Below, piece after piece: positions 7,401-32,333 of a stretch of 38,728 nucleotides of DNA. A model generated the notes under the pieces. The model saw only the letters and a list, made by a program, of their open reading frames with translations. It was not told where the DNA came from and ran no database searches. Origin of the DNA: an uncultured Candidatus Saccharibacteria bacterium (GTDB lineage: Bacteria > Patescibacteriota > Minisyncoccia > Minisyncoccales > JAGGSE01); NCBI GenBank assembly GCA_964591195.1, contig CAZPZY010000002.1, positions 1-38,728 on the forward strand. The letters are read 5' to 3'. Position numbers and translations under genes: made by a program. Positions within the stretch are counted from its first letter, which is position 1; each line of letters begins with the position of its first letter.

Positions 7401-7409
7401 AATAGTAGT

Positions 7410-7442: not shown

Positions 7443-7445
7443 TTG

Positions 7446-8880: not shown

Positions 8881-8900
8881 ACATTTGAATTTCCACTCTG

Positions 8901-9394: not shown

Positions 9395-9436
9395 AAATTT
9401 ATCAACTTTTCTTCCTGCTGTCAAATTCTCTCGTTT

Positions 9437-13694: not shown

Positions 13695-14504
13695 TTATCT
13701 TAAAGTATTCCTCCTTCTAGCATAGAGCATGCCGAGATTGGATAAGGGCTTTAGACAAACTACTGAAAATCCATTCCTTTCCAAAAATTCTTCTAATCCT
13801 TTAACTCCTTGATGATATTCAAGAACAATATTTTTAATCTTGCATAGATAGTCTGGGGGTGTATTAAAAAGAATTTCATATTCAGCCCCTTCACAATCTA
13901 TTTTTAAAACATCGCAGCCCTCTATCTTGTTATCTTCGAAAATACTTTGAAGAGTGACAACTTTAATCTTAACAAAATCTTTTGGATTAGGTACATACTC
14001 TTGATACAGAGAATCTGCGATACTTCGATTAGGATAAAGAAACAATCTCCTTTCCTCATCTTTCTCTGACACCCCTAAATTAAATGGCTTGATAGATTCT
14101 GTGAGATTGTTAAGTTCAATATTTCTAACCAATCGTGAAAATGTGTCAGGGTTGGGTTCATAAGCATAAACCTTAACATTTTTAGCAGAAGTGGCAGCAA
14201 AAAGAGAAAAAGCACCAATATTAGCCCCAATATCAATAACGATATAATTATCTAAAATCCTTGGCTGTCTTGAGTGTTCTCTCTTAGCAAAAATCTCTTT
14301 GAAAGGAAAGAGTTCTTTACCTTTATCAGCCGCCAAAACTTTTAAGCCGTTCCTGAAGTTAAAAATTTCCTCCTTGTTTTTTGAAAGACCAAAACGAAAT
14401 TTCAACCACAATGGCCAATTCTCAATAGTAGCAATAATCCAAATCAAGGATTTTAACTTAGAAGAAATATTATCCATACATAAATAAGTTTTGTAAAATT
14501 TCAA
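13695..14504 (-). CDS. FkbM-family SAM-dependent methyltransferase
   Basis: 269 aa. VIDIGANIGAFSLFAA...VYAYEPNPDTFSRLVRNIELN...LKIDCEGAEYEIL are the FkbM family blocks. Confidence 0.8.
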   Translation of the reverse strand: MKFYKTYLCMDNISSKLKSLIWIIATIENWPLWLKFRFGLSKNKEEIFNFRNGLKVLAADKGKELFPFKEIFAKREHSRQPRILDNYIVIDIGANIGAFSLFAATSAKNVKVYAYEPNPDTFSRLVRNIELNNLTESIKPFNLGVSEKDEERRLFLYPNRSIADSLYQEYVPNPKDFVKIKVVTLQSIFEDNKIEGCDVLKIDCEGAEYEILFNTPPDYLCKIKNIVLEYHQGVKGLEEFLERNGFSVVCLKPLSNLGMLYARRRNTLR

Positions 14505-14507: not shown

Positions 14508-15674
14508 CTACTTTTCGTATAAAACTTCATCTATTAACACTTTCCATTTTTTAGCAATCTCCTTCCACTTATATTTTTTAGCCTCCTCTAAACAACTCTT
14601 CTGCATTTTTTTGTAAAGATGCTCATTATTTAATAACTCTAAAATAGCTGCTTTCTGACCTTCTTCGGTATTCCTTAAAAATCCAGTTACCCCATCTTTA
14701 ACAACATATTGAACTGCTGAATTCTTCATAGCAACAACTGGGGTCCCTGAAGCCATTGCCTCAACAAAAACTCCGCCAAAAGTTTCTCCTTTACTTGGCA
14801 TATAATATATTTTTGCTTTTCTATACAACTCTTGTAAATCCTTACCCATTTTAACTCCAGTAAACCTTACATACTTGTCTAAATTTAAATCTTTAATTAA
14901 CCCCATTATTTTTTTTTCATATTCTTCTCCGCTTTGCCAACCTTCTTTGGCCTGCGTTCTATATCTGCCCTTTAAAAATTTTCCAACAATAAAAAGTTTG
15001 CAGGGCTTTTGTTTTATCACTTCCGAGAACACTCTCAAAATCGTATGTAAATTCTTTCTATCCTCCCACCATTTTGAAACGGTTAAGATATAATTTTCTT
15101 TCTTTTCAGTTCCTATTTGAAACTTTGTACCCCAAGGAATTATGGAATATTTACTCTTAGGAATCTTTTTTATTTGCGAAAGAGCATCAATTCCATGCTT
15201 TGTAAAAACAACAATTTTATTAACTAAACTGAGATGAAGTAAAATTAGAATCCATCTTAAAAAATCTTTAAGGGTTAGTGAAATAGACCTATGAAATCGA
15301 GGAATACCATATTCATTAATATCTGGTTGAGATATCGTTTTAATGCCCAAAAATTTAGAACAAAGAAGTAAAAAATGGGCTAAAGGATTACAAAAATGAT
15401 GATGAAAAACAATAACATCCGGCTTAATCTTCCTGAGCGTTTTAAAGATAGCTACTATATTCTTACCTTGAATTATCTCTGGTGTTTTATAAGAAAAGTC
15501 TGACAGGCTGGGTTTTGTAAAATTTTTTGTCAATAAAATATAGTTTTTATAATCTGGATAGTTTTCTAAATATAACGGAATAAAATATGAAAGAGAGGGA
15601 ATTCCATCGTTATCAGCGCAATTTCTCATAATATGCAAAATTATCTTTTTTTTGTTATCTCTTTTCTGTCTCAT
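14508..15674 (-). CDS. GT4-family glycosyltransferase
   Basis: 388 aa. C-terminal KIYYMPSKGETFGGVFVEAMASGTPVVAMKNSAVQYVVKDGVTGF. Confidence 0.75.
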   Translation of the reverse strand: MRQKRDNKKKIILHIMRNCADNDGIPSLSYFIPLYLENYPDYKNYILLTKNFTKPSLSDFSYKTPEIIQGKNIVAIFKTLRKIKPDVIVFHHHFCNPLAHFLLLCSKFLGIKTISQPDINEYGIPRFHRSISLTLKDFLRWILILLHLSLVNKIVVFTKHGIDALSQIKKIPKSKYSIIPWGTKFQIGTEKKENYILTVSKWWEDRKNLHTILRVFSEVIKQKPCKLFIVGKFLKGRYRTQAKEGWQSGEEYEKKIMGLIKDLNLDKYVRFTGVKMGKDLQELYRKAKIYYMPSKGETFGGVFVEAMASGTPVVAMKNSAVQYVVKDGVTGFLRNTEEGQKAAILELLNNEHLYKKMQKSCLEEAKKYKWKEIAKKWKVLIDEVLYEK

Positions 15675-16620
15675 AAAGATTTTGCCATAAGATCGTTTTA
15701 TTTCTGATTAGTTTAGATAATTCTCTTACATCTTCGAAGTTATTCTTGGCTTCATAAGACCAATGAAGTGTTATAGGAACAATAATATCTTCTTCAATCT
15801 CTAATGACTTTATAAAATTAACTATCTCTTTACAACTCCCATAAACTGGAGGATAAGAAGGTATATATAATGCTCCTTTAAAGTAACAAGGTGTTATCTT
15901 AAATCCTAGAGTTTTAATGCTTTCTGGACCACCGGTAATAATTTTAAAATATCTTTTCAAGATTTCATAATTTTTTTCATCTATTGCATTAAATGGAGGA
16001 ATGAATATATGGGATTCAATATTATATTTTGCTAATTCCTTGATACCATTTACTACTCTATTCTCAATTTCTTGAGAGGAAAGTCCGATAAATTCAGAAC
16101 GCTTCCACCTTTTGTTTAGAATTGTTTGATGAGTTAAACCGTGTAATCCTACCGTTATTATGGGCTCCTTTAAAAGATCGGCTTCATTTGTTGTTAAACT
16201 TCTAAATTTTTTATTTTTAGGATCTAAGACATTAAGGCTTAATAATGGGGTCACCCCAAGTAAATATGGAATCTTATACTTTTTAAATATTTCATGGAAA
16301 TTTAAAAAGTTGTTAAAACTATTATCCCATCTGGGGAAATCATCAACTCTAACTAAATATTTGACTTCTCCTCTTTTTTTAACGCCTTTCCATTTTTTAA
16401 AGAGCTTTCGAATATTTATTATTTCATTTAAAACAATTTTGTAGTAATTTATTTTTCTTCTTTTTAGATAGTGATAAAATGCCTTTTTGAAAATAGAGGG
16501 CTTTTGAAATTCCAATTTTATTTGCGGAAATCTTCTCAAAAATTCCTCTATCTCGCCACTATCTTCAATTATACCCCTAAGCATCAAAGCAACTGTCTTT
16601 AGAATATCTTTTTTATTCAT
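15655..16620 (-). CDS. DUF2334 / polysaccharide-deacetylase-like protein (tentative)
   Basis: 321 aa. YLVRVDDFPRWDN...VGLHGLTHQT...IFIPPFNAID resembles the RxDD..P / LHGxxH / PPxN blocks of DUF2334-type deacetylase-fold proteins. Assignment by eye only. Confidence 0.45.
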   Translation of the reverse strand: MNKKDILKTVALMLRGIIEDSGEIEEFLRRFPQIKLEFQKPSIFKKAFYHYLKRRKINYYKIVLNEIINIRKLFKKWKGVKKRGEVKYLVRVDDFPRWDNSFNNFLNFHEIFKKYKIPYLLGVTPLLSLNVLDPKNKKFRSLTTNEADLLKEPIITVGLHGLTHQTILNKRWKRSEFIGLSSQEIENRVVNGIKELAKYNIESHIFIPPFNAIDEKNYEILKRYFKIITGGPESIKTLGFKITPCYFKGALYIPSYPPVYGSCKEIVNFIKSLEIEEDIIVPITLHWSYEAKNNFEDVRELSKLIRNKTILWQNLYETEKR

Positions 16621-17789: not shown

Positions 17790-18646
17790 TTTTTAATACG
17801 GTATTTTAAAATCCCATAAACCCTGCCAAGGTAAGTAAAAAAATCATATGTAAAGCCAAAGGGGATTAAAACCAAAGGATATCTTATAAAAACTACAAGT
17901 GGTAATAAAATAACTCCTCCTAATTTTATAATTTCTCTGATAACCGGTATGCCTCTTTTTTCCCTTAATTTTATCCCTTCTTTACCATGAATAAATCCTC
18001 TTTTGAAAACTCCTTTCCAAGTTTGAGAATGACAATGCAAGACTTTTATAGTAGGGTCATAAAATATTTTATAACCTCTATCTCTTATCCGGTAACATAG
18101 ATCATAATCTTCAGATGAAGCAAATCTAAAAGACTCATCAAATCCGTTAATTTCTTCAAGTACTTTTCTTCTAACAGCCAAATTACAAGCAGGAAGAGTA
18201 TCTGTGAATCTTTTTTTATTTCCGTATAATTTATTTCTTCTATATTGCTCAAATTTCTCGCTTAATCCTTCTAAAGAAAATGCTTCAATTCCTCCGCCAA
18301 CAGCGGCTACCTTTTTATCCTCAAAATAAGGTAATGTTTTAATAATCCAATCTTGACTAACTATGACATCAGAATCTGTAAAAAAAATAATTCCTCCTTT
18401 TGAATTTCTCCAGCCTTTATTTCTTGCTGCTGATGGGCCTTTGTGTCTTTGAAAAAGTAATTTTATTTTTTTAGGGTGTCTTTCAGTATAATTTAAAATA
18501 ATCTTTCTGCTCTTATCTTTAGACCCGTCATCCACAAATATAGCCTCAAGGCCTTTATATTGAAGATTAAGAATAGAATTTAGACATCCTTGTAAAGTAT
18601 TTTCCGCATTATATACAGGAATAACAATTGAAACTTTATTTTCCAT
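17786..18646 (-). CDS. GT2-family glycosyltransferase
   Basis: VSIVIPVYNAENTLQGCLNSILNLQYKGLEAIFVDDGSKDKS and FTDSDV (DxD). The track ORF starts at 18706; ATG 18646 (MENKVSIVIP) gives the usual GT2 N-terminus and cuts the overlap with the upstream gene from 71 to 11 nt. Confidence 0.8.
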   Translation of the reverse strand: MENKVSIVIPVYNAENTLQGCLNSILNLQYKGLEAIFVDDGSKDKSRKIILNYTERHPKKIKLLFQRHKGPSAARNKGWRNSKGGIIFFTDSDVIVSQDWIIKTLPYFEDKKVAAVGGGIEAFSLEGLSEKFEQYRRNKLYGNKKRFTDTLPACNLAVRRKVLEEINGFDESFRFASSEDYDLCYRIRDRGYKIFYDPTIKVLHCHSQTWKGVFKRGFIHGKEGIKLREKRGIPVIREIIKLGGVILLPLVVFIRYPLVLIPFGFTYDFFTYLGRVYGILKYRIKK

Positions 18647-19718
18647 ATTCAAAATCTGAATAGAAATCCTTTCTGAAATATAATGGATCAATAATCTTTT
18701 CTCCATCAGCCGGTTTTAGTTCGCTATCTCCAAATATCTTAAAATAGGATTTTTCTAAACCTGGACAAATCTTATTAAATTTACATTTTTTACATTTCTC
18801 TGATTTAAAATAACTTCTAATCCTCATTGAAACACAAATATCTTCCAAGTAATCCTTGGAAAGTTTAATTTTGGGATGAGATTTTAGAAATCCATAAAAA
18901 AAATATCCTAAATATTTCCAGGTTGGAGTAACCTTCTTTGCTGTCAATTTTATAAGCATTCTCTGAGACCACTCAAAAGGATCAAATATTTTTTGTGGAT
19001 AGTGACATATATACTTTTCATATCCTCTCATAAAACAAAATGGGATATACCTTAAATTAATATAAGGCACCCTGCCTTTTAAAATATCCACTGCCTTTTT
19101 TATATAGGAAGAAGCTATAGAGTATTTTACTGAAAATTGATTAGCTAATTGATCTGCCAACTCAAAATCATTAAACAATATAAAATTGACCTGCCTTGGT
19201 TCTAATTTGTTGTAAAGTTTTGCATGTTTTTCTAAATTTCTATAATTTATATTTGTCACCGTACAGTTAATTCTAAATGGAATGCTATATTTTTTGAGAT
19301 TTTCAACAGATCTAATAATTTTTTCAAAAGAACCGGGAACTTGAGTTATATAATCATGTTCTTGAGAGTTATGTCCATGAATAGAAAAAAGAACATCATT
19401 TATACCGTTTTCAACCATCTCTTTTACAAAGTTTTCATCTGCCATTCTTAAACCATTTGTTAAGGTACAAATAGTTTTAAACCCTTTAGATTTGGCGTAT
19501 TTAATGAGTTCTATAAAATCAGGATGAATAGTAGGTTCTCCTCCCGAAAAATCAATTGCCTTCATTCCTGCTTTCCAAGCGATATCCATTTCTTTCATTA
19601 TCACTTCTTTGGGCCAAAATCCTTTTAATTCAGCAAGATAATAATAACAAAATCTACATCTTGCATTACAACCCATGCCTGTAAAAATCCTTGCTCTTTT
19701 AGTATAAGTATCACTCAT
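18636..19718 (-). CDS. radical SAM protein with Cys-rich SPASM/twitch-like C-terminal region
   Basis: 360 aa. GMGCNARCRFCYY (CxxxCxxC), FSGGEPTIHPDF, then CFMRGYEKYIC and CKKCKFNKICPG near the C-terminus. Confidence 0.8.
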   Translation of the reverse strand: MSDTYTKRARIFTGMGCNARCRFCYYYLAELKGFWPKEVIMKEMDIAWKAGMKAIDFSGGEPTIHPDFIELIKYAKSKGFKTICTLTNGLRMADENFVKEMVENGINDVLFSIHGHNSQEHDYITQVPGSFEKIIRSVENLKKYSIPFRINCTVTNINYRNLEKHAKLYNKLEPRQVNFILFNDFELADQLANQFSVKYSIASSYIKKAVDILKGRVPYINLRYIPFCFMRGYEKYICHYPQKIFDPFEWSQRMLIKLTAKKVTPTWKYLGYFFYGFLKSHPKIKLSKDYLEDICVSMRIRSYFKSEKCKKCKFNKICPGLEKSYFKIFGDSELKPADGEKIIDPLYFRKDFYSDFEYGK

Positions 19719-21153
19719 GACTTTTTAATTTTGATATTAGTCTTTTAATATCCCGATATATAAGTTCATAATCATTAAAGTCATTTTTGGTGTAAGCAGT
19801 AAATACATCTGCCTTAATTGTATTTTTGAAATAAGAGATAATAAACCGGCGGTTTACCTGTTTTAAATTGTTTAGAATGGGAGGATTTTCCAAATCAATT
19901 TTTATTCTCTCTGCTAATTCTTCAAAATTGTCTACTTTTTTACACAAAGGGTGATAAGAATAAAAAACTTTTCCTAAAACATAAACTGGTTTTCCAGATA
20001 AAGCTGCTTCCATTCCTACAGTGCTAGTTAGGGTTATAACTCCTTTTGATTTTTTTATCAAATTCTCTACATTCTCATAAGGAGAAAGTAAAACTACGTT
20101 AGGTATTTTTTTGAGTGTTTTGTAGAAAACTCCTGGGCGAGTTCCTACTGCTACCGGATGTTCTTTAACATATAACCTATAAGAAAAAGGTAAACTAAAG
20201 GCTATGTTTTTTATAGTAGTTAACTGGTCAGAAAAATAGGTTGCTAAAACTGATGTTGAAGCCTCGGGTTGAAGTTGAAGAGGAAAAAGAAAAAAAATGT
20301 CATCGTCATTTGGTGAGTTATAAATATTTTTTTGAAAAAGAATTCTTAATTTCCTTTTTATATCTTTATATGGGAGCAAAAAAGTAGCCCACATTATCCC
20401 TTCGCTTTCATGATCAAATTCTTTAAACTTTTTTCTATTCAATAAGTATTTAATCCGAGATTGGAATTTTGTTTTATCTGTCCAATGTCTCAAGAAGCCT
20501 TTTATTCCGTAATAATATTTCTTGCCCATATAAGAAGGTAATTGCTGATGGGCTATAAACTTTTTTTCAAAGTCCTGAACTTCTTCTTTTTCGTCCTCTT
20601 TTAGAATATCAATGTGAGGATTTTCTCTAAAATCCTTTTCATATACAGAACAAGTGTACTCTAAATCATAAATATCTATCCGGTCCTTAAATCTCGAAGG
20701 AATTATACCAAGATAAAGTATATTATTTCTTTTAGAAATACGATAAGCAATTTGGGTAAATACATTAGCGGGGGGCTCACTAATTACTACATCCGGTTTT
20801 TCTTTTTGAAATAAAGAGTTGAAGAACTGATAAAACTGAGAAATTATTTCGACGGAATTTTTATAATTGAAATCAATATTATCATCTCTTGTTTTCCGAT
20901 CAAAAGTAGAAAAAAAATCCCTCCACGAGAGACCAGGAAATTCTCGCCAATCTTTCTTGTAATTTTCAATGCACCAATCAACTTTTGATAAAAACTTTAT
21001 ATCTTTGGGAAATTTTTTCCTCATATTATATTCCAATATTTTCCCCACACCAACCACAATACACTCATCACTCTCTTTTATCATTTGATGAGTAAGTTTT
21101 GCTAAAAAATGTATTAAATATGGTGATCCATCTGCAAGAAGACAATATTTCAT
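19711..21153 (-). CDS. KpsS/KpsC/LpsZ-like 'capsule polysaccharide biosynthesis' family protein (candidate ulosonic-acid transferase)
   Basis: FFLFPLQLQPEASTSV...YRLYVKEHPVAVGTRPG...NVVLLSPYENVENLIKKSKGVITLTSTVGMEAALSGKPVYVLGKVFY fits the Capsule_synth pattern (LQ..D, K.HP, StvG.EA...GkPV...G). Start at ATG 21153 (MKYCLLADG) is preferred over 21207. Confidence 0.6.
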   Translation of the reverse strand: MKYCLLADGSPYLIHFLAKLTHQMIKESDECIVVGVGKILEYNMRKKFPKDIKFLSKVDWCIENYKKDWREFPGLSWRDFFSTFDRKTRDDNIDFNYKNSVEIISQFYQFFNSLFQKEKPDVVISEPPANVFTQIAYRISKRNNILYLGIIPSRFKDRIDIYDLEYTCSVYEKDFRENPHIDILKEDEKEEVQDFEKKFIAHQQLPSYMGKKYYYGIKGFLRHWTDKTKFQSRIKYLLNRKKFKEFDHESEGIMWATFLLPYKDIKRKLRILFQKNIYNSPNDDDIFFLFPLQLQPEASTSVLATYFSDQLTTIKNIAFSLPFSYRLYVKEHPVAVGTRPGVFYKTLKKIPNVVLLSPYENVENLIKKSKGVITLTSTVGMEAALSGKPVYVLGKVFYSYHPLCKKVDNFEELAERIKIDLENPPILNNLKQVNRRFIISYFKNTIKADVFTAYTKNDFNDYELIYRDIKRLISKLKSHE

Positions 21154-21274
21154 ATAAAATGTATATAGTAAAATACTATTATACCACAAAAAGCAAATAT
21201 TACTCAATGTAGGATTGTTTGAAAAACAAAGTTAGCATCTAACAAAATTAACTAGGCAAATACTGCTATCTTAT

Positions 21275-22324
21275 CTATTTTCCAATAAAATGCCAACTTA
21301 TTGGAGTGCCTTTTTTAATATCTTGAGTAGCTTGCTTGTTTAAGATATCTTTTAAATATTTTGGATGCAAACCGTAGCCAGGTCTTATAGAACGAATATT
21401 TTTTTCGGTAAAAACCTCACCCGCTTTTATATCTTTTACTACAAATAAAGAACGAGAGAACTCTCTACTCTTTTTCATTTTTTCTGTCAGCTCGTAGGAT
21501 ACTTCTCCCAAAGCCTTTTCTACTTCTCTTACTGAGTTTACCATTGCTTTGAATTCGGAGGGTTCTAACGAAAATGCAGCATCTGGTCCACCTAATGACC
21601 TATCTAATGTTAGATGTTTTTCTATTATAGAAGCACCTAAGGCAACAGAGGCAATGGGGACCGAAACGCCCAAGGTATGGTCAGATAAACCTACTACAGT
21701 TTTAAAAGTGTCTGCTAAATTGGGAATAGTCCTTAAATTTACATCTTCTAAAGGCGCAGGATAAGCACTGGTGCATTTAAGTAAAGCTATTTGGTTATTT
21801 CCCATTCTTTTGCAGGCACTTACTGCTTCTTCAATATCAGAAAGAATAGCGATTCCTGTGGAAATAATTACAGGTTTTCCCTTTGAAGCTACATACTCAA
21901 TAAGCGGAATATCGGTTATTTCAAAAGATGCAATCTTGTAAGCAGGAACATCTATTTCTTCTAAAAAATCTACTGCTGATTTATCAAAAACAGATGAAAA
22001 ACATATTAAACCTTCGCTTTCTGCAATTTCTTTTAATTTTGGCTGCCACTCCCAAGGAGTATAGGCTTCTTTATAAAGTTGATAAAAAGTCTTGCCATCC
22101 CATAAAGTTCCCTGTTTTATCCGAAAGTATTCATTATTACAATCAATGGTCATGGTATCTGGTGTGTAAGTTTGTAGTTTAACGGCATCGGCACCTGCTT
22201 CCTTTGCTTCTTTTATAAGTTTTACAGCATAATCAAATTTTTGAAGATGATTTGCTGAAAGCTCAGCTATTATGAAAACAGGAAAATTCTTCCCTATTTT
22301 TTTATTCTTTATTTCTAAATACAT
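21275..22324 (-). CDS. pseI: NeuB-family nonulosonate synthase; pseudaminic acid synthase by context
   Basis: 349 aa. FIIAELSANHLQKFDYAVKLIKEAKEAGADAVKLQTYTPDTMT and a C-terminal SAF-like domain (VVKDIKAGEVFTEKNIRSIRPG). Called PseI rather than NeuB/LegI because of the adjacent pseB/C/G genes. Confidence 0.8.
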   Translation of the reverse strand: MYLEIKNKKIGKNFPVFIIAELSANHLQKFDYAVKLIKEAKEAGADAVKLQTYTPDTMTIDCNNEYFRIKQGTLWDGKTFYQLYKEAYTPWEWQPKLKEIAESEGLICFSSVFDKSAVDFLEEIDVPAYKIASFEITDIPLIEYVASKGKPVIISTGIAILSDIEEAVSACKRMGNNQIALLKCTSAYPAPLEDVNLRTIPNLADTFKTVVGLSDHTLGVSVPIASVALGASIIEKHLTLDRSLGGPDAAFSLEPSEFKAMVNSVREVEKALGEVSYELTEKMKKSREFSRSLFVVKDIKAGEVFTEKNIRSIRPGYGLHPKYLKDILNKQATQDIKKGTPISWHFIGK

Positions 22325-22336: not shown

Positions 22337-22987
22337 TTATTCATCCGCTTTATAAATTTTTATAATATACTTGTGACCTTTATGATAAAAAAAAGCTGGA
22401 AAATTTTCATTGTTAACTATTCTTAAAAGATTAAACTGTTCTTTTATTGTCTTATTAATATCTAATTCACTATCAGCAGGAGTCCTTCTTCTATAAAAAG
22501 TCGATTTTCCTCTCTGCTTTTTAGGTTTTAATTTTTCGTAGTCATCAATAAAACGCAAGCATAATTCTATTGTTTTTTTTGCCTGCTTTTCTCGGATTTC
22601 ATCGTATAACTCATGACCCTCAAATATTAAAAAGTCCTTAAGATAAATATCACCATCATCTACATTTTCAGAAGCCTCAAATAGAACTATAGGGATTTTA
22701 TTTTTACCCTCTAAAATTTGCCAAAATAAAGGAGCCCAACCCTTACCTTTTGGTAAATCGCTTTCATGAACCACGATATTATGTCTATGCATTAACAGAA
22801 ATTTAGGTGGTATTATTTTAAAATAACTAAGAATAAATACAACTTCGAATTCTTCTGAAATATTTTTATAATCAAAAAATAACTTAGCTAATACCCCCTT
22901 TTTTCTTAAAATTTTACTTAATTGTCTTGCGTAAGGTACAAACCAACTAGTTTCAGAAGTTAATATAGCTAATTTTCTAAAATTCAT
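22337..22987 (-). CDS. formyltransferase-like protein (Formyl_trans_N fold), paralog 2
   Basis: 216 aa. NIVVHESDLPKGKGWAPLFWQILEG and ENVDDGDIYL resemble the HxSLLPxxRG and DxGxI blocks of Fmt/PurN/ArnA-type enzymes. C-terminal part is similar to that of ORF 23666..24367. Confidence 0.6.
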   Translation of the reverse strand: MNFRKLAILTSETSWFVPYARQLSKILRKKGVLAKLFFDYKNISEEFEVVFILSYFKIIPPKFLLMHRHNIVVHESDLPKGKGWAPLFWQILEGKNKIPIVLFEASENVDDGDIYLKDFLIFEGHELYDEIREKQAKKTIELCLRFIDDYEKLKPKKQRGKSTFYRRRTPADSELDINKTIKEQFNLLRIVNNENFPAFFYHKGHKYIIKIYKADE

Positions 22988-23679
22988 TTTAATATTCTTA
23001 CAACTTTAAAAGCCTCTGCGTATTCCAAGCCAACCTTAATTCCCCAATTCTTTGCAATAAGTTTCACTCCTTCTAAAGACCGCGGATGAGGATATTTTCT
23101 TAACTCAGTTTTATATTTTTCAAGTGCCCTAATTTTAATATCTATAGTTGTGGAGATATCAAAAAATATATCAGGCGAAAAATTTAAAGGATATCGCCAT
23201 TCAGTAGAAGACGGAATTTCGAAAGAACATATTTCTTTTACAGTTTCTCCTTTTAATGGTCTTGTTGCTGTTATCACAGCTCTATATGCAATTTGATGGT
23301 CAACATTTAAGTCCCTCTCATAATGAGTAAAAATTATCTCTGGATTAATGCTATTTTTTACCTTCTCAACAACTTTTACAATATCTAAAAATGGAACTGT
23401 ATCGAATCTATTGTCAGGAAAATCATAAAAGAAAACTTCTTTAACCCCCAATATCTTATTTGCCTCTTTAGCTTCTCCTTTTAACTCTGTAATTTCTTCC
23501 TCTCTCCTTTTTCTATCCCTCATGTTATCTCTTGAGGTAATTCCTTCACCTAAAATTAGCGTATAAACCTCAAAACCTTCTTTAATCAATCTTGCAATTG
23601 TTCCACCACATCCTAAGACCTCATCATCAGGATGGGCAGCGACTATTAGAATTGTCTTATTTTCTTTAATTTTCTTCAT
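22984..23679 (-). CDS. PIG-L/LmbE-family N-deacetylase
   Basis: 231 aa. ILIVAAHPDDEVLGCGGTIARL (AHPDDE motif) and NVDHQIAYRAV (HxDH-like). Confidence 0.85.
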   Translation of the reverse strand: MKKIKENKTILIVAAHPDDEVLGCGGTIARLIKEGFEVYTLILGEGITSRDNMRDRKRREEEITELKGEAKEANKILGVKEVFFYDFPDNRFDTVPFLDIVKVVEKVKNSINPEIIFTHYERDLNVDHQIAYRAVITATRPLKGETVKEICSFEIPSSTEWRYPLNFSPDIFFDISTTIDIKIRALEKYKTELRKYPHPRSLEGVKLIAKNWGIKVGLEYAEAFKVVRILK

Positions 23680-24367
23680 AAACTACCTCAAAACGACCTA
23701 CTAATTTATTTGATTTCTTATGAACCTCGGAAAATTCAATTTTTAAATTATTTATTTTAAAAAAAGCTTTAGGATATCCTTCTGCATCTAACATTCGGAC
23801 AAAATCATAAAAATCATCCAAATTTTTTATCTCTGCTTTCTGTAAATTGCTTTCTTTGGGTTTTCTTCTTTTAAAAACTATCACTTCTCCTTCTTGTGTC
23901 TGAGGGATAGGTTTGTTTTCTAAAATATAAGGAATCATATCAAAAAAGATAATTTGAGAAGCAGCAATAAAAATTTCTTCTGCACTTCCTATCCCAATAT
24001 AAAAATCTTTTTTCAAATAAATCTTCCCTGTATCAATCCCTTCTTCTGCTTGAATTGCTGAGATTTTAGTATGATAGATTTTACGTTGAATTAAATTTTG
24101 AAGCGGACTTCCTCCTCTACCAAAAGGAAGATCTGTGATGTGAAAAACAACACAGGTATACTTTTCATAAAGTTCCGGCGGTATTATCCATGACCAATGT
24201 GGGAGAAATATCCATTCAGGGTTAATCCCTGTGATATTTTTTTCATTCAATTCTCTCTTGTCTGTAATTACTAAAACCTCATATTTATCCTTATATAATT
24301 CTTTAAATTTATACGCATTCCTGATATTCCAAGATTTTATTGTAGCTATAACTATTTTTTTCTTCAT
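23666..24367 (-). CDS. formyltransferase-like protein (Formyl_trans_N fold), paralog 1
   Basis: 233 aa. CVVFHITDLPFGRGGSPLQNLI and EGIDTGKIYL. C-terminal FKRRKPKESNL...FYDFVRMLDAEGYPKAFF parallels FYRRRTPADSEL...FNLLRIVNNENFPAFF in ORF 22337..22987. Confidence 0.6.
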   Translation of the reverse strand: MKKKIVIATIKSWNIRNAYKFKELYKDKYEVLVITDKRELNEKNITGINPEWIFLPHWSWIIPPELYEKYTCVVFHITDLPFGRGGSPLQNLIQRKIYHTKISAIQAEEGIDTGKIYLKKDFYIGIGSAEEIFIAASQIIFFDMIPYILENKPIPQTQEGEVIVFKRRKPKESNLQKAEIKNLDDFYDFVRMLDAEGYPKAFFKINNLKIEFSEVHKKSNKLVGRFEVVYEEN

Positions 24368-24372: not shown

Positions 24373-25368
24373 TTATTCTATTATTACTTTTATTACCCTA
24401 TCAACTATCCTTAAACTACCTTTTCCATCAACAATTTTTTTGGCTATTTTAGATCTACTTTTTCTTATTTTTATACCTTTTATGTATTCTACTGCATCTT
24501 TAGTTTTCTCAAGTATATCATTTTTATTATACCACCCAACATACTCTAAAAATCCTATTCTTTCCCATCCTCTTACATTTCTTAATTGATTTTCTGCTAC
24601 GCAAATCCCTACTGTAGGAACTCCAACCCTTGCAAGTTCGTATAAAGTCTGTCCTCCTGCAGATATTGCGATATCTGATTCCAACATAACTTTTTTCATT
24701 TTATTTGCATCTGGATAATAAATCAAGTCAGTATTTTTATCTGCATTCTTTTTGATTTCATCTATATTTTGAAAAGCTTTTCCTACTATGACATTCTTTT
24801 TCAAATCAGGATAGTTTTCTCTTAAAAATTTTAGAACTTTTGGTGTCATATTTCGCATATCATCCCCACCAAAAGTAATCATTATGCTTTCAATCTTTTC
24901 TTTTATTTTCTTTTCTGGTACTTCCCAAAATTCTTTCCTAAGAGGAATATATTTAGTTCCTAATAAATACTTAACTCCCTCTTTTTTAGGATAATTTAAT
25001 TCTTCAGCATAGATGTTCCCATTTACTACAACTCCCTTTGGATAATCCAATCTTTTATTATCGTCTATATATACAGCTAATTTTACTAAATCAGATAAAG
25101 TATTATAGAAAGAAATATCTGCTAAATAGGAATCTATAACAGCAATATCAGCATCTTTCACTTTTTCAAATAACCTACCTCTTTCCTCAAGCCAGTTAAA
25201 CATTTGATAATTTATGTCTTTTAATAACTCACTAATACTACCATCTCCATTTATTATAAACTCTGGAATTATTTTTCTTTCTTCAAAGGCCTGATACAAA
25301 GAAATACATCTTGTTATATGGCCAAAACCTATATTCTTACTACCTTCGGTAATAATGAAAACTTTCAT
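24373..25368 (-). CDS. pseG: PseG-type UDP-2,4-diacetamido-2,4,6-trideoxy-beta-L-altropyranose hydrolase
   Basis: 331 aa. N-terminal MKVFIITEGSKNIGFGHITRCISLYQAF (xGxGHxxRC motif of PseG/SpsG). GT-B-like C-terminal half (ISAGGQTLYELARVGVP). ATGA overlap with the upstream gene. Confidence 0.75.
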   Translation of the reverse strand: MKVFIITEGSKNIGFGHITRCISLYQAFEERKIIPEFIINGDGSISELLKDINYQMFNWLEERGRLFEKVKDADIAVIDSYLADISFYNTLSDLVKLAVYIDDNKRLDYPKGVVVNGNIYAEELNYPKKEGVKYLLGTKYIPLRKEFWEVPEKKIKEKIESIMITFGGDDMRNMTPKVLKFLRENYPDLKKNVIVGKAFQNIDEIKKNADKNTDLIYYPDANKMKKVMLESDIAISAGGQTLYELARVGVPTVGICVAENQLRNVRGWERIGFLEYVGWYNKNDILEKTKDAVEYIKGIKIRKSRSKIAKKIVDGKGSLRIVDRVIKVIIE

Positions 25369-26228
25369 TTTGGTAAATTCTTTTGCAAAAAATCTCTGGC
25401 TCTTTTTAAATCCTGCAAATCTAATACCTTTATCGCTTCTTTAATTTCTTCTTCTAAAGTATTTAATATCTTCTTTTGAACAACTTTTTTATTTATTAAT
25501 TTTAACCAGGGTTTTTCTTTAAAAAGATTCACTATATCATAAGTATCGAAATACTTATTTTTTGGATATAAATGGTCAAACACTGCACAAAGCAGAACAT
25601 AGTCCTCTTCTGTATCCAGGGTAATTCTTATATCAGGAGCATGAAGCTCTTCCGGTGCTTTTATTTCATTTATTTTAAATATTTGAGGATTTTTATAAAT
25701 ATAAGGCGTAACATGTTCCTTTTCATAATCTTTGTTGGCTTTTCTATAAACTTCTTCCAAGGTACTAAAATTAAAAACTTCCACATCAAGACCATATGGG
25801 TAAGTCCTTGTTAAAGTGTTAGATGTATAATCTGCCATTTTATTTATATGAGCATCAATTGCTAAATCTGTAATATCGGGATCTACACAAGGACAATCAC
25901 TTGTAATTCTAACAATTATATCAATATTATTTTCTTTTGCTGCAAAATAATACCTAGATAACACATTTTCCTTACTGCCTCTGAAATATTTTACATCTTC
26001 CTTTTTGGCAATTTCTACAATATTATCATCTTCTTTCCCTTCTGTGGTAGCAATAATAATATCATTTAATTTTTTAGATTTTTTCAGTCTCCTAATAACC
26101 TGTTCCAAGCAAGTAATGCCACTATTGAAAGGAAGCTCTTTTAAAACTTTCCCGGGCAATCTTGTGGAAGATATTCTTGCTTGAATTATCGCTGCTATTT
26201 TTAGCCCATTTTTTTTATCTTTTCTCAT
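25365..26228 (-). CDS. SpsF/COG1861-type cytidylyltransferase; presumed CMP-pseudaminic acid synthetase role
   Basis: 287 aa. IAAIIQARISSTRLPGKVLKEL is the SpsF-type cytidylyltransferase N-terminus. It sits between pseC and pseG. The PseF role is inferred from context only. Confidence 0.65.
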   Translation of the reverse strand: MRKDKKNGLKIAAIIQARISSTRLPGKVLKELPFNSGITCLEQVIRRLKKSKKLNDIIIATTEGKEDDNIVEIAKKEDVKYFRGSKENVLSRYYFAAKENNIDIIVRITSDCPCVDPDITDLAIDAHINKMADYTSNTLTRTYPYGLDVEVFNFSTLEEVYRKANKDYEKEHVTPYIYKNPQIFKINEIKAPEELHAPDIRITLDTEEDYVLLCAVFDHLYPKNKYFDTYDIVNLFKEKPWLKLINKKVVQKKILNTLEEEIKEAIKVLDLQDLKRARDFLQKNLPK

Positions 26229-26323: not shown

Positions 26324-27466
26324 TCATTTTTTATAAAAATTGATTACTTTTTTAACTGTTTTAATCACTCTATTAACGTCTCCATTTGTCATTTTTGGAA
26401 AGAGAGGGAGGGTGATAGCCCTTTGATAATATCTTTCAGCTATTGGAAAATCTCCTTTTTTATAGCCAAACTCTTTTTTATAAAAAGGTTGAAGGTGAAG
26501 CGGAATATAATGAACTTGAACGCCAATTCCTGCTTTTTGTAATCCTTCAAATATCTTCTTCCTGCCGGCTTTTAATCTTTCTAAGTTTAATTGGATTGGA
26601 TAAATATGCCAGGCTGATTTCACATAGCTCCTCTCGATGGGAGTAGTAATTTCTTTAATACTCTTAAAAGCCCTATTATATTCAGCAACAATCTCTCGTC
26701 GTCTTTTAATGAATTTATCTATTTTTTTAAGCTGACTTAAACCCAAAGTGCATTGGAAATCAGTTAAGCGATAATTATAACCAGGCTTCTCTATCTCATA
26801 ATACCAACCACCTTTTTCTGGTTTTTTTACTATACCATGATGTCTAAAAATTTTTAATTTTTTGTAAAAATTCTTATTATTCGTTAAAACCATTCCGCCT
26901 TCTCCGGTAGTAATATGTTTTACTGGATGAAAACTTAAAATAATCATATCAGCAAAACTGCCAACTTTCTTCCCTCGATATTCGGAACCCAAAGCATGGG
27001 ATGCATCTTCTATTATTAATAGCTTATATTTTCTGGCTATTTTTCCAATCTCATCATAGTCACAGGGATGACCGCCAAAATCAACCGGAGCTATAGCCTT
27101 AGTTCTAGTGGTTATCTTCTTCTCAATATTCTCCGGGCTAATGTTGCAAGTATCTTCCTGTACATCAACAAACACCGGTTTTCCTCCACAATGAACTACT
27201 GTATTGGCAGTCGCAGCGAAAGTTAAAGGAGTAGTGATTACTTCATCTCCCGGCCCAATCCCAGCCGCATTATAAGCAATGTGTAAAGCTGCCGTTCCTG
27301 AAGAAACTGCTACCGCATACTTTGCTTCACAATATTTAGCAACTGCTTTCTCAAATTCTTCAATTTTTGGTCCTTGGGTTATCCAATCACTTCTTAAAAC
27401 TTTAACAACTTCTTTAATATCATTGTCATCTATCCAGTGATGACCATAAGGAATAAATTTTTTCAT
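26324..27466 (-). CDS. pseC: DegT/DnrJ/EryC1-family PLP aminotransferase, PseC-type
   Basis: IPYGHHWIDDNDIKEVVKVLRSDWITQGPKIEEFEKAVAKYCEAKYAVAVSSGTAALHIA; SFHPVKHITTGEGG (PLP lysine region). ATG 27466 forms an ATGA overlap with the pseB stop (tcat at 27463-27466); the track start 27520 is less likely. Confidence 0.85.
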   Translation of the reverse strand: MKKFIPYGHHWIDDNDIKEVVKVLRSDWITQGPKIEEFEKAVAKYCEAKYAVAVSSGTAALHIAYNAAGIGPGDEVITTPLTFAATANTVVHCGGKPVFVDVQEDTCNISPENIEKKITTRTKAIAPVDFGGHPCDYDEIGKIARKYKLLIIEDASHALGSEYRGKKVGSFADMIILSFHPVKHITTGEGGMVLTNNKNFYKKLKIFRHHGIVKKPEKGGWYYEIEKPGYNYRLTDFQCTLGLSQLKKIDKFIKRRREIVAEYNRAFKSIKEITTPIERSYVKSAWHIYPIQLNLERLKAGRKKIFEGLQKAGIGVQVHYIPLHLQPFYKKEFGYKKGDFPIAERYYQRAITLPLFPKMTNGDVNRVIKTVKKVINFYKK

Positions 27467-28449
27467 TCTTCTATTTCTATTTTTTTTAACATTTTTCTTA
27501 TTTGTTTTTTGGTAAGCCATTTCTTGTTGGTACCACTTGTGTATTTGAACCCTTCTGGAAGTGCTTTTCCTCCTTTAAGGTTCTTTCTTCTCCAAAAAGG
27601 AAATTCCGGTTCTACCACAAAATACCTATCGAATTCTTTTGAATGCCTGGCTTCTTCAGTGGACAAAAGAATTTCATGAATTTTTTCTCCGGGACGAATG
27701 CCAGTTATTTTTATCTTGGCTTTAGGAGCAATAACTTTGGCTAGATTTATTATTCTTAAGCTAGGAATTTTAGGAATAAAAATCTCTCCTCCTTTCATTA
27801 ATCTAATACAATTAATAACAAAATGAACTCCTTCTTCTAATGTAATCCAAAATCTTGTCATTCTTTTATCGGTAATAGTTAATATCCCCCTTCTTTTTTG
27901 TTCAAGGAATAATGGAACTACACTTCCTCGGCTTCCCATCACATTACCGTAACGGGTACAACTAAATTTTGTCTTCCTTGTTCCAACATAAGAATTAGCC
28001 TGGATAAAAAGCTTTTCAGCACACAACTTTGAGGCTCCATAAAGATTTACAGGATTCACTGCCTTGTCAGTACTTAAGTTTATTACTTTCTCCACATCAT
28101 TATCTATAGCAGCGTCAATCACATTTTGACTCCCAATAATATTCGTCTTAACCGCTTCAAATGGATTATATTCACAAGCCGGAACTTCCTTTAAGGCAGC
28201 AGCATGTACTACAATATCTGCTCCATTCATGGCTCGATAAACTCTATCTTTATCTCTAACATCTCCTATAAAATATCTTAATCTTTTGTCCTCTTTAAAT
28301 TTTTGTTGCATTTGAAACTGTTCAAACTCATTATTAGAAAAAATTCGAATCACTTTCGGCTTATAATACCTCAATACTATTTCGGTGAATTTCATACCAA
28401 AAGAACCGCTACCACCGGTAACCAAAATAGTTTTATTATTGAGACCCAT
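27463..28449 (-). CDS. pseB: UDP-N-acetylglucosamine 4,6-dehydratase (inverting), PseB/FlaA1-type
   Basis: NNKTILVTGGSGSFGMKF..., YGASKLCAEKLF (YxxxK), about 330 aa, polysaccharide-synthesis SDR. The track start 28491 is TTG; ATG 28449 (MGLNNKTILVTGG) is preferred. Confidence 0.85.
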   Translation of the reverse strand: MGLNNKTILVTGGSGSFGMKFTEIVLRYYKPKVIRIFSNNEFEQFQMQQKFKEDKRLRYFIGDVRDKDRVYRAMNGADIVVHAAALKEVPACEYNPFEAVKTNIIGSQNVIDAAIDNDVEKVINLSTDKAVNPVNLYGASKLCAEKLFIQANSYVGTRKTKFSCTRYGNVMGSRGSVVPLFLEQKRRGILTITDKRMTRFWITLEEGVHFVINCIRLMKGGEIFIPKIPSLRIINLAKVIAPKAKIKITGIRPGEKIHEILLSTEEARHSKEFDRYFVVEPEFPFWRRKNLKGGKALPEGFKYTSGTNKKWLTKKQIRKMLKKIEIEE

Positions 28450-28564
28450 ACTTTTAATGTTATTTGTACTATCTAACCACCTCGGCAACAAAATGGTTAG
28501 AAGTAATTTTTAATTTTCTCTCAACTATTCCACCTTCAGTTGAGAGATTTCAACCTTTATTCTC

Positions 28565-30264: not shown

Positions 30265-31183
30265 CTCCCTTGAACCAATTCACTGCCTTTTCTAACCCTT
30301 CTTCTAAACCGATATTTGGCTCCCACTTTAAAATCTCTTTTGCTCTTGTTATATTGGGACATCTCCTTATAGGATCATCTTTGGGCAATTCCTTAAACAC
30401 AAATTCTGATTTTGAATTTGTTAGTTTTTTGATTCTCTCTGCTAGTTCTAAAATTGTAATTTCTTTGGGATTTCCTATATTTACAGGGCCTACATAATCA
30501 GAGTCCATTAATTTTATTAAACCCTCTATAGTATCAGAAATATAACAAAAACTTCTAGTTTGTTTACCATCTCCGTATATAGTTATTGGTTCGTTTTTCA
30601 AAGCCTGTTTAATAAAATTTGGAACTACCCTGCCGTCATTTAAATTCATTTTTGGACCGTAGGTATTGAATATTCTCGCAATTCTTATTTCCACGCCATA
30701 CTCTCTGTGAAAATCCATCATTAATGTCTCTCCAATCCTTTTACTCTCGTCATAACAACTCCTCACGCCAATAGGATTAACATTTCCCCAATATTCTTCC
30801 TTTTGAGGATGCTGTAAAGGATTTCCATATACTTCAGAGCTAGAAGTAAATAAAATTTTAGAGTTGAATTCTTTGGCTAAAAGTAATAAATTATAGGTTC
30901 CTAAAGAATTTGTCAAAATCGTCTCAATAGGATATTTTTGATAAAAAACCGGTGAAGCCAGAGAGGCCAAGTGATAAATTTCGTCAAATTCTAAAAAGGG
31001 AATTTTTTGCGAGATATCAGCTTTTATTATTTTCACCTTTAATTCTTTCAAATTTTCTTTTTTCCCAGAAAGAAAATTATCTAAAATTGTAACCTCATTT
31101 CCTTCTTTGACTAGTCTTTCAGTCAAATGAGAACCAATAAATCCTGCTCCTCCAGTAATTAAAATTTTTTTATTTCTTTTCAT
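30251..31183 (-). CDS. UDP-glucuronate decarboxylase (UDP-xylose synthase), extended SDR
   Basis: 310 aa. KILITGGAGFIGSHL, CYDESKRIGETLMMDFHREYGVEIRIARIFNTYGPKM, DGRVVPNFIKQALKNEPITIYGDGKQTRSFCYISD closely follow UXS/ArnA-decarboxylase-type blocks. Confidence 0.8.
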   Translation of the reverse strand: MKRNKKILITGGAGFIGSHLTERLVKEGNEVTILDNFLSGKKENLKELKVKIIKADISQKIPFLEFDEIYHLASLASPVFYQKYPIETILTNSLGTYNLLLLAKEFNSKILFTSSSEVYGNPLQHPQKEEYWGNVNPIGVRSCYDESKRIGETLMMDFHREYGVEIRIARIFNTYGPKMNLNDGRVVPNFIKQALKNEPITIYGDGKQTRSFCYISDTIEGLIKLMDSDYVGPVNIGNPKEITILELAERIKKLTNSKSEFVFKELPKDDPIRRCPNITRAKEILKWEPNIGLEEGLEKAVNWFKGVIFS

Positions 31184-32021
31184 TTTTTCGATGGCTATAA
31201 TTTAAGAAATATTCTTCTCTTAAGCCACTTTTTTTTAGTAATTTTCGATTAATTTTTCGCATTGCTTTTAAAAGAGGTAAAGCAACTTTTTTAGAATTTG
31301 CAAATTGAATCAAAGAATTTATATCTTTTGGGAAACAAGAACCTCCGTACCCCTGATAATTATCAGTAAAAATATCAAAATGAGAAGGGCCAATCCTCTT
31401 GTCTCTTCCTACTCCCGCTTTTACTTCTTCATAGTTTATTCCCAATTTTTGACAAAGCTCATAAAATTCGTTGGCAAATACCACCTTCATTGCCAAAAAA
31501 GAGTTAGCCATAAATTTTATCATTTCTGCTTCTTTGGCTGGCATTATTTTTTGCCAAGGAGCTGAAGGTAAAATTTTCATAATTTTTTTTGCCAAATTTT
31601 CACTTTCTTGAGTATATCCAACAATTTGCCTATCTGGATGTAAAAAATCCTCCAAGGCATGATTTTCTCTTAAAAATTCGGGATTAAACAAAATTTTGTG
31701 TTGAGGAAATTTTTTTTGGAATTTTTCAGTTGAACCGGGCAAAACCGTTGATTTGATCACTACTATCTTTTTGTCTGAAAGATTTTTTAATGATTCCCAA
31801 ACCATTGAATCGTCATAGCCTCTTTCTTTATGATAAGGAGTGGGAACGCAAATAAAGATAATATCGGCCTGATTAACCTCCTCTGGAGAACCAAGATTTC
31901 TGCCTTTGTCGTATAAAAAAAGTTTAAATCCTTTTTTCTCAAAATATCTTTGGAGGGCGCCACCGACCATACCTACTCCCACGATACCAATTTTTAAATC
32001 CTTTAATGATTTTTCTTGCAT
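31170..32021 (-). CDS. UDP-glucose/GDP-mannose dehydrogenase-family protein, short form lacking the C-terminal UDP-binding domain
   Basis: KIGIVGVGMVGGAL (Rossmann), FNPEFLREN, YGGSCFPKDINSLI (catalytic Cys block). The protein ends about 45 aa after the Cys block. The track start is TTG 32048; ATG 32021 is preferred. Confidence 0.65.
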   Translation of the reverse strand: MQEKSLKDLKIGIVGVGMVGGALQRYFEKKGFKLFLYDKGRNLGSPEEVNQADIIFICVPTPYHKERGYDDSMVWESLKNLSDKKIVVIKSTVLPGSTEKFQKKFPQHKILFNPEFLRENHALEDFLHPDRQIVGYTQESENLAKKIMKILPSAPWQKIMPAKEAEMIKFMANSFLAMKVVFANEFYELCQKLGINYEEVKAGVGRDKRIGPSHFDIFTDNYQGYGGSCFPKDINSLIQFANSKKVALPLLKAMRKINRKLLKKSGLREEYFLNYSHRKNEKK

Positions 32022-32025
32022 ATTC

Positions 32026-32184
32026 TTAATTTTTAATCTTTGTTTCAAACCACTCTTGGACCTTTTTTAAACCTTCTTCAAAAGGAACTTTTGGTTGCCA
32101 ATTTAGAAGGTTTTTTGCTAAAGCGATGTCGGCTTTAGTATGCAAGACATCCCCAATTTTAACATAACTATTTTTAACGTCAAA
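32026..32184 (-). pseudogene. 3'-terminal relic of an NAD-dependent sugar epimerase/dehydratase gene
   Basis: Minus frame (checked triplet by triplet): ...SYVKIGDVLHTKADIALAKNLLNWQPKVPFEEGLKKVQEWFETKIKN*. Compare the GalE-like C-terminus KAKKELNWQPKYNLEEGLKETVKWF. An in-frame stop lies just upstream at 32185-32187. Confidence 0.6.
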
Positions 32185-32191: not shown

Positions 32192-32333
32192 CAATACCTA
32201 ATATCAAGGTAACCCCTTCGGCTACAGCTAGCCAAAAAGTGTTTTTGGCTATAGTTTGCTTGACACCCAAATTCTTCAGAAAAAAAACCTGAGGATTGGA
32301 AATAATGTTTCTGAGTATCGTCCTAAAATTCAT
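32192..32333 (-). pseudogene. 5'-terminal relic of a Wzx-like flippase gene, fused out of frame to the epimerase relic
   Basis: Track ORF 32118..32333 begins MNFRTILRNIISNPQVFFLKNLGVKQTIAKNTFWLAVAEGVTLILGIV (flippase-like N-terminus). It then reads through the epimerase relic in the wrong frame and stops. Confidence 0.4.

Follow-up and report, generated by a model that had tools for sequence, protein, structure and literature searches.

A pseudaminic acid operon with two formyltransferase-like paralogues, a deacetylase and no visible acetyltransferase: a predicted route to a di-N-formyl sugar

Introduction

How can a pseudaminic acid operon furnish both ring nitrogens of its product with acyl groups when no acetyltransferase is in view? 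The question is raised by a stretch of DNA of 38,728 nt (38.7 kb) from one contig (CAZPZY010000002.1) of an uncultured Candidatus Saccharibacteria bacterium, referred to below as the window; the rest of the genome lies outside view. Pseudaminic acids (Pse) decorate flagella, capsules and lipopolysaccharides. With the canonical PseB-PseC-PseH-PseG-PseI-PseF pathway of Campylobacter and Helicobacter the window has PseB, PseC, PseG and PseI in common, and it differs in having no PseH in view, a cytidylyltransferase of another CTP_transf_3 subfamily, and three added genes that appear to edit the N-substituents. These encode two paralogous proteins of the formyltransferase fold, here called FT-A and FT-B, and an LmbE/PIG-L-type N-deacetylase, here called DAC.

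The answer that we favour is that a single Pse operon re-decorates both ring nitrogens without an acetyltransferase, the product being 5,7-di-N-formyl-Pse linked to cytidine monophosphate (CMP-5,7-di-N-formyl-Pse). On the evidence assembled here, we give this reading about an even chance of being right.

Two formyltransferase-like paralogues and a deacetylase between pseG and pseI

The three genes lie on the minus strand between pseG and pseI: FT-A (23666..24367, 233 amino acids, aa), DAC (22984..23679, 231 aa) and FT-B (22337..22987, 216 aa). The map of open reading frames (ORFs) bears out exactly the 14- and 4-nt overlaps of the original prediction, with FT-A and DAC sharing positions 23666-23679 and DAC and FT-B sharing 22984-22987. 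A gap of 5 nt separates pseG from FT-A and one of 12 nt separates FT-B from pseI, in what is a single minus-strand Pse operon whose neighbouring genes overlap by 4-14 nt or stand 5-12 nt apart. The accompanying claim that the cluster has no GNAT or hexapeptide acetyltransferase also held: a Pfam scan of main-strand ORFs (100 aa or longer) at positions 730-38606 found neither, and two PseH hidden Markov models (HMMs) built from related loci matched nothing at E ≤ 10 among the window ORFs of at least 40 aa.

FT-A shares 65% identity along its full length with the structure in PDB entry 1ZGH (E 6.6e-81) and matches Formyl_trans_C_2 (PF21553) with 63 bits; its match to Formyl_trans_N (PF00551) reaches 21.7 bits, under the gathering score of 26.1. 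FT-B exceeds the same gathering score with 39.1 bits. Its AlphaFold2 model (pLDDT, the predicted local distance difference test, 89.8) was matched by Foldseek to 1ZGH, Fmt, ArnA-N, VioF and WbkC with E ~1e-11 and template modelling (TM) scores of 0.62-0.78, the best structural match being 1ZGH at TM 0.75, and by sequence its solved relatives are 1ZGH first, followed by Fmt, ArnA-N, VioF, WbkC and WbtJ. The formyltransferase fold on which the original prediction was built is therefore supported for FT-B by PF00551 together with the predicted model, and for FT-A by the identity to 1ZGH. The two proteins are paralogous over their full length, including the C-terminal domain (hhalign probability 98.6%, 26% identity), and NCBIfam holds no specific model for either.

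Both paralogues carry the motifs that had been quoted for them, H-x-(S/T)-D-L-P-x-G-(R/K)-G and D-x-G-x-I-Y, as CVVFH-ITDLPFGRG and IDTGKIY in FT-A and as NIVVH-ESDLPKGKG and VDDGDIY in FT-B. The catalytic His and the Asp are kept in every sequence aligned, as H76 and D112 in 120/120 FT-A homologues and as H74 and D110 in 121/121 FT-B sequences (120 homologues and the window protein). With the His, the Asp, the D-x-G loop and [ST]-x-L-P-x-G-[RK]-G all in place, both proteins look formyltransferase-like.

What is missing is the Asn two residues ahead of the His. This Asn, of the motif N-x-H, counts as a catalytic residue of Fmt, ArnA, PurN and the sugar formyltransferases, and its absence, first seen in the two proteins of the window, extends to both families (120 FT-A and 121 FT-B sequences). 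Specifically, position 74 of the FT-A homologues is V, L, G or I and position 72 of the FT-B sequences is V, I or A, never Asn, and in an alignment to Bacillus anthracis Fmt these residues fall under the Asn of INVH. In FT-B an Asn (N70) is invariant four residues ahead of the His. FT-A has the invariant family motifs ATIKSWN, PHWSW, TDLP and GRGGSPLQN.

DAC matches PIG-L (PF02585) with 102 bits (gathering score 28.2) and contains the AHPDDE motif, in agreement with its original assignment as an LmbE/PIG-L deacetylase, that is, a zinc-dependent N-deacetylase. Across 93 orthologues and the window protein, H16, D18, D19, D127 and H128 are at least 97% conserved, so that AHPDDE and the D-H of the second motif are kept. 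In MshB and BshB these residues supply the zinc ligands and the general base, and with all of them kept DAC looks catalytically competent. It resembles the LmbE/PIG-L deacetylases (MshB, BshB, diacetylchitobiose deacetylase) in its PIG-L domain, its AHPDDE motif and its zinc ligands. It differs from them in scoring far under every NCBIfam equivalog cut-off (79 bits against 182.5 for BshB1), in having N-x-D-H as its second motif, where an invariant Asn replaces the first His of H-x-D-H, and in its context, which is a Pse operon instead of thiol biosynthesis or chitin breakdown. The relatives of DAC in the PDB are deacetylases of the N-acetylglucosamine (GlcNAc) type, which de-N-acetylate 2-acetamido sugars. 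The target of DAC is therefore most likely the GlcNAc-derived 2-N-acetyl group (the future N5), which the enzyme is predicted to strip.

Gene neighbourhoods separate the triad into two units

We surveyed 160 related loci, 80 of them genome loci anchored on FT-A and 80 metagenome loci anchored on FT-B, which were annotated with the window proteins and with HMMs; proximity to DAC was counted in 55 FT-A loci with enough flank and in 30 FT-B loci. DAC follows directly after FT-A, mostly overlapping it, in 50 of the 55 loci and is at most 3 kb away in 53 of them, and the FT-A + DAC pairs sit within pseB/pseC/pseG/pseI clusters. For FT-B, DAC is found within the same distance in only 14 of 30 loci. 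The "triad" is thus two units: a coupled FT-A + DAC pair, and FT-B.

Most FT-A + DAC loci also carry a GNAT of 140-190 aa, located between pseI and either DAC or the cytidylyltransferase, and in the clearest of these loci the GNAT is PseH by TIGR03585 (107-179 bits against a cut-off of 93). Cultured organisms with FT-A, DAC and PseH include Methanohalophilus profundi, Clostridium sporogenes LCP25S3_F4 and Halanaerobium kushneri, for which our model would predict Pse5Fo7Ac. Because most FT-A loci also encode PseH, and FT-A is bound to DAC, we rejected FT-A as the likely PseH substitute. The predicted role of FT-A is instead that of an N-acyl (formyl) transferase acting on the amine, the future N5, that DAC sets free.

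FT-B behaves differently. Directly upstream of pseI, the FT-B-anchored loci have FT-B in 40 of 47 cases, and the FT-A-anchored loci have a GNAT in 22 cases and FT-B in 11; FT-B holds the PseH slot directly upstream of pseI. The presence of FT-B is also negatively associated with that of a GNAT (Fisher p = 0.003-0.01). A strict mutual exclusion of FT-B and PseH was not upheld, since fusions and co-occurrences exist despite this association. The simplest loci are minimal islands of the order pseB-pseC-pseF-pseG-FTB-pseI beside flagellin and fliS, with no GNAT, DAC or FT-A, and no acetyltransferase was found among their tested flanking ORFs; there the PseC product is therefore the sole free amine. 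Minimal FT-B clusters without a GNAT are found at L116, L118, L137 and L139 (L-numbers denote surveyed loci), and the PseH-less arrangement recurs across many phyla with flanks of at least 2.5 kb that contain no GNAT. FT-B is accordingly predicted to be a formyltransferase for the 4-amino nitrogen (future N7) that stands in for PseH.

The original prediction had placed all three genes together in the acetyltransferase slot, with one paralogue formylating N4 and the deacetylase and the other paralogue acting on the 2-N. This division of labour fits the comparative genomics. The treatment of the three genes as one unit does not: FT-B alone fills the slot, and FT-A with DAC forms a separate module that normally stands beside a genuine PseH.

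Other partners of DAC point in the same direction. A methyltransferase of ~260 aa that uses S-adenosylmethionine (SAM) adjoins DAC where FT-B is present and FT-A absent (L085:5353-6153, L132:6515-7324, L144:8626-9420), and also in FT-A/DAC loci that have neither GNAT nor FT-B (L012:762-1544, L032:11365-12153, L064:11375-12160). This fits a role in which DAC exposes an amine that a neighbouring enzyme then modifies, and suggests that the methyltransferase N-methylates the exposed amine. No dedicated gene for acyl-donor supply is conserved in the surveyed loci, which fits a common metabolite as the donor.

Several of these genes are also fused without an intervening stop codon, as GNAT-FTA (5), DAC-GNAT (5) and FTB-GNAT (3). 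The GNAT-FTA fusions come from Lachnospiraceae and others, and the DAC-GNAT fusions from Helicobacter, Campylobacter and one Omnitrophota; the GNAT domains of the L155 and L051 fusions exceed the PseH equivalog cut-off (fusion coordinates L057:9527-10690, L074:5272-6633, L051:10623-11858, L055:3431-4558, L155:1158-2327 and L140:333-1484). A further variation concerns FT-A/DAC loci in which no pseG was detected near FT-A. Here a protein of ~260 aa is encoded directly upstream of FT-A, the usual place of pseG (L001:9190-10005, L007:1961-2743, L029:3326-4144, L064:9114-10001). The L007 copy matches AP_endonuc_2, a xylose-isomerase-like TIM barrel, with 53 bits, and the other three are similar by eye; the protein may be a non-orthologous replacement or an extra step.

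At E<1e-5 the homologues of FT-A form more than 7,800 clusters, with 45-65% identity across distant bacterial phyla and archaea, and FT-B has ~2,160 clusters; in a scan of one genome per GTDB species, relatives were found in at least 549 genomes. FT-A, DAC and FT-B recur together in ~30 independent loci from many phyla, and the arrangement is therefore not due to chance. The three-gene set occurs in Spirochaetia, Bacteroidales, Cloacimonadota, Omnitrophota, Planctomycetota, Oligoflexia, Helicobacter, Clostridia, Flavobacteriales and Margulisiibacteriota, and also on a dozen metagenome contigs, with L081 showing the same gene order and an FT-B 100% identical to that of the window. The neighbourhood survey that had been proposed for the triad thus recovered it repeatedly, as a widespread arrangement and not as a peculiarity of the window.

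Relation to known enzymes and pathways

Formylation in place of PseH is already known. Specifically, the formyltransferase PseJ of Anoxybacillus kamchatkensis replaces PseH, yielding 7-formamido-CMP-Pse (Reimer et al. 2018, ACS Chem Biol 13:3161, cited in PMC11040635). The original statement that no defined enzyme set was known must be narrowed accordingly: a PseH-less route to 7-formamido-Pse is defined by PseJ, and what is left uncharacterised are the FT families and the N5-editing module.

Like PseJ, FT-B has the formyltransferase fold and is found in complete Pse clusters in place of PseH; unlike PseJ, FT-A usually co-occurs with PseH. PseJ is ~190 aa long, whereas FT-A and FT-B have an extra C-terminal domain of the PF21553 type, and neither a deacetylase nor a second transferase is known to us from the PseJ pathway. 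Orthology to PseJ was considered for both proteins and rejected. The FT-B profile scores only 20.8 bits against PseJ (6CI2/6CI4; E 0.003, rank ~37), compared with 59 bits against 1ZGH and 49 bits against Fmt, and the FT-A profile has no PseJ match at E ≤ 10. By these profile comparisons, PseJ and FT-A/FT-B are different branches of the formyltransferase superfamily.

The closest solved structure, 1ZGH, is a structural-genomics entry of 2005 from Clostridium thermocellum. It belongs to the same family as FT-A, is without an assigned function, and was deposited as 'methionyl-tRNA formyltransferase', the name that the source records also give to FT-A homologues if they name them at all. As a name for 1ZGH this is almost certainly wrong, since members of the family consistently turn up in Pse clusters beside a deacetylase.

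The sugar N-formyltransferases (the N-terminal domain of ArnA, VioF, WbkC, WbtJ and the WlaRD class) share with FT-A and FT-B the fold, the His, the Asp, [ST]-x-L-P-x-G-[RK]-G and the nucleotide-sugar context. They differ in the N-x-H Asn, where FT-A/FT-B have V, I, L, G or A, and the identity to their structures is only 16-23%.

Mass spectrometry of Candidatus Kuenenia stuttgartiensis has found CMP-nonulosonates with one formyl group and one free amine, and these were linked to a cluster with a deacetylase and a formyltransferase (bioRxiv 10.64898/2026.04.20.719630). Compared by description only, that cluster has one formyltransferase where the window has two, and is described as legionaminic-like; on the same descriptive comparison, a formyl group plus a free amine is the product that our model predicts for FT-B and DAC without FT-A. 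The matches listed in the present analysis include no Kuenenia sequence. Pse clusters without pseH and with formyltransferase genes have been noted in Geobacillus (PMC5109656), and deacetylases in the Pse islands of Aeromonas (PMC7874193), in both cases with no function assigned. We also considered Halorubrum's 5-N-formyl-legionaminic acid as a precedent for a deacetylase acting with a formyltransferase and rejected it, the formyltransferase gene there being a full-length Fmt-like one of ~950 bp with no deacetylase described.

Proposed pathway and competing explanations

In the pathway that we propose, PseB and PseC, by family assignment, convert GlcNAc linked to uridine diphosphate (UDP-GlcNAc) into UDP-4-amino-4,6-dideoxy-beta-L-AltNAc. 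FT-B would formylate the 4-amino group, presumably from N10-formyl-tetrahydrofolate (N10-formyl-THF), DAC would take off the 2-N-acetyl group, and FT-A would acylate the amine so freed, most simply with formyl. The order of these three steps is itself a prediction, and DAC and FT-A could act on the UDP-sugar, the free sugar or the nonulosonate. PseG, PseI and the cytidylyltransferase, again by family assignment, would finish the pathway to CMP-5,7-di-N-formyl-Pse, which would then pass to a KpsS-like transferase and to the glycosyltransferases encoded around the operon in the polysaccharide locus. With two formyltransferase paralogues, one deacetylase and no acetyltransferase in the window, a diformyl product would be expected whichever paralogue serves which nitrogen. 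The biochemistry proposed here agrees largely with the synteny.

A broader claim, which we make tentatively, is that FT-A + DAC is a widespread and unrecognised N5-editing module (at least 549 species, archaea included), that in combination with FT-B, a second and PseJ-independent replacement of PseH, it would give 5,7-di-N-formyl-Pse, and that FT-A and FT-B would form a sugar formyltransferase clade able to function without the canonical Asn.

Several observations weigh against these proposals. A pseH gene may sit in this genome outside the visible 38.7 kb. Both paralogues lack the N-x-H Asn, and the donor or the chemistry may therefore differ; FT-A moreover has its invariant PHWSW where Fmt carries AYGLI. 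Fusions join FT-B to a GNAT in L114, L140 and L155, the last of PseH grade (144.6 bits), and Helicobacter loci hold FT-A, a DAC-GNAT fusion, FT-B and further GNATs, so that FT-B and PseH are not strict alternatives. Some PseH-like GNATs may act on N5, as would be required for Pse5(3-hydroxybutyryl)7Fo, a sugar that occurs in Pseudomonas aeruginosa (PMC11040635). Four complete loci have FT-A + DAC but neither a GNAT nor FT-B. Finally, the literature that we searched yielded no report of 5-N-formyl or diformyl Pse, no biochemistry for any member of the FT-A, FT-B or DAC families, and nothing on the function of 1ZGH or of an LmbE/formyltransferase pair beyond remarks from genome comparison.

The alternative that survives best, and which we nevertheless consider unlikely, is that one or both paralogues, FT-A especially, are not usual formyl donors. 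They would transfer another group, use another cofactor or only bind or present the substrate, leaving N5 free or with a non-formyl substituent, for example as Pse5N7Fo, the sugar proposed for Kuenenia. The catalytic Asn is indeed missing from every FT-A and FT-B member examined, FT-A falls under the Formyl_trans_N gathering score (21.7 against 26.1) and has family-specific invariants in ATIKSWN, PHWSW, TDLP and GRGGSPLQN, and free-amine CMP-nonulosonates were detected in Kuenenia. However, the His, the Asp, the D-T-G loop and [ST]-x-L-P-x-G-[RK]-G are all kept, and the nearest solved relatives are all N10-formyl-THF enzymes. Strong purifying selection, with 45-65% identity maintained across bacterial phyla and archaea, favours an enzyme, and no conserved neighbour gene would supply an unusual donor.

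Less probable still is that the two paralogues have their roles swapped, with FT-A formylating the 4-amino group (N7), FT-B acylating the amine freed by DAC (N5), and the GNAT of the FT-A/DAC/GNAT loci serving as the N5 acyltransferase. Such a scheme would mirror the Pseudomonas aeruginosa sugar mentioned above. FT-B-GNAT fusions occur, and L134 holds FT-B, a GNAT and DAC together; the DAC-GNAT fusions tie a GNAT directly to the deacetylase; and L032 and L064, where FT-A and DAC are joined by a methyltransferase but by no other acyltransferase, are read most easily if FT-A works on N4. Against this, an FT-A acting on the PseC product would not need DAC, yet DAC is adjacent in 50/55 loci, and FT-B is often found without it. 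Moreover, FT-B is the sole acyltransferase of the minimal clusters and so must act on N4 there, and most GNATs near FT-A/DAC are well over the PseH equivalog cut-off.

We think it very unlikely that a true pseH elsewhere in the genome still makes plain Pse5Ac7Ac while the three genes modify only a fraction of the Pse, or else a different amino sugar in the same polysaccharide. In favour of this reading, only 38.7 kb are in view, some loci carry both FT-B and PseH, and in some organisms, Helicobacter pylori and Campylobacter jejuni among them, the Pse genes are dispersed. Against it, the three genes overlap one another within the operon, flanked by pseG and pseI, FT-B has the exact syntenic place of pseH, and the PseH-less arrangement is repeated in many phyla with GNAT-free flanks of at least 2.5 kb.

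The surrounding locus

The remaining genes of the operon, all on the minus strand, have assignments that agree with the single block of pseB, pseC, a cytidylyltransferase, pseG and pseI described originally. The inverting UDP-GlcNAc 4,6-dehydratase pseB (27463..28491) scores 496.5 bits with TIGR03589 (cut-off 407.75) and matches Polysacc_synt_2; pseC (26324..27520), the aminotransferase from which the 4-amino group (future N7) derives, 515.5 bits with TIGR03588 (423.5); the UDP-sugar hydrolase pseG (24373..25368) 175.8 bits with TIGR03590 (153.55); and the pseudaminic acid synthase pseI (21275..22324) 521 bits with TIGR03586 (340). All four are above their NCBIfam equivalog cut-offs. The cytidylyltransferase (25365..26228), of the CTP_transf_3 family (PF02348, 115 bits), is presumed to be the CMP-Pse synthetase; it is not a PseF equivalog (TIGR03584, 16.2 bits against a cut-off of 205.7), and the same gene is kept between pseC and pseG in related loci. 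As called, the pseC ORF overlaps pseB by 58 nt, and the match to the PseC model begins at residue 22. The true start is probably Met19 at 27466, which gives a 4-nt ATGA overlap with pseB as at other junctions of the operon.

Downstream of pseI follows a KpsS/BFO_1060-like protein (19711..21207, minus strand; Capsule_synth 52 bits, BFO_1060_trans 37.5 bits, the latter below cut-off), a candidate transferase for the CMP-nonulosonate, whose homologues stand downstream of pseI in L048, L058 and L144 as well. Its end is overlapped by a radical SAM gene (18636-19718, minus strand; Radical_SAM 87 bits), just downstream of the Pse block. The radical SAM protein is closest to HxsC4/AhbD-like NCBIfam models, far under their cut-offs, and homologues of 29-33% identity adjoin Pse/FT clusters in L028 and L050 too.

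Further downstream are five glycosyltransferases of the GT1/GT2 families, together with a DUF2334 protein (15655-16620, minus strand) and an FkbM-type methyltransferase (13695-14504, minus strand); the presence of the latter two among the glycosyltransferases suggests that the final polymer is probably further modified. An ORF for a UDP-glucose/GDP-mannose (guanosine diphosphate mannose) dehydrogenase (31170-32048, minus strand, 292 aa) matches the N-terminal domain from profile position 72 and has no match to the C-terminal domain, and may be truncated or a pseudogene.

The G+C content is 0.39-0.44 in positions 1-9000 of the window and 0.29-0.33 across the glycan locus (10000-33000). The first of these regions is housekeeping-like (CofD, pyruvate:ferredoxin oxidoreductase subunits, a Wzy_C/TPR protein and Bac_transf). 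Remnants of mobile or defence type are found in the glycan locus, namely a HicB-like antitoxin (9137-9481), an AbiEii fragment (32330-32767) and a GIY-YIG protein (33906-34268). The drop in G+C and the remnants are in keeping with a glycan island that was acquired horizontally or is hypervariable.

Implications

How antibodies, and possibly phages, recognise Pse is governed by its N-acyl groups (PMC13576459; bioRxiv 10.64898/2026.04.20.719630), and the enzymes that add non-acetyl N-substituents are described as "largely unknown" in PMC11040635. What is new here are two uncharacterised formyltransferase families without the Asn, a context for 1ZGH, a modular rule for the N-substituents of Pse, and a predicted diformyl sugar that is undescribed. 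The locus and its relatives suggest a modular code, in which PseH or FT-B would serve N7, and DAC plus FT-A, a methyltransferase or a GNAT would serve N5.

If true, such a code would allow the Pse variant of an organism to be predicted from sequence. It would also provide a function for a very large family that goes by the name of "methionyl-tRNA formyltransferase", and for the orphan structure 1ZGH, and it would supply enzymes for the chemoenzymatic synthesis of N5-modified Pse. A formyltransferase clade without the Asn would, in addition, be of mechanistic interest.

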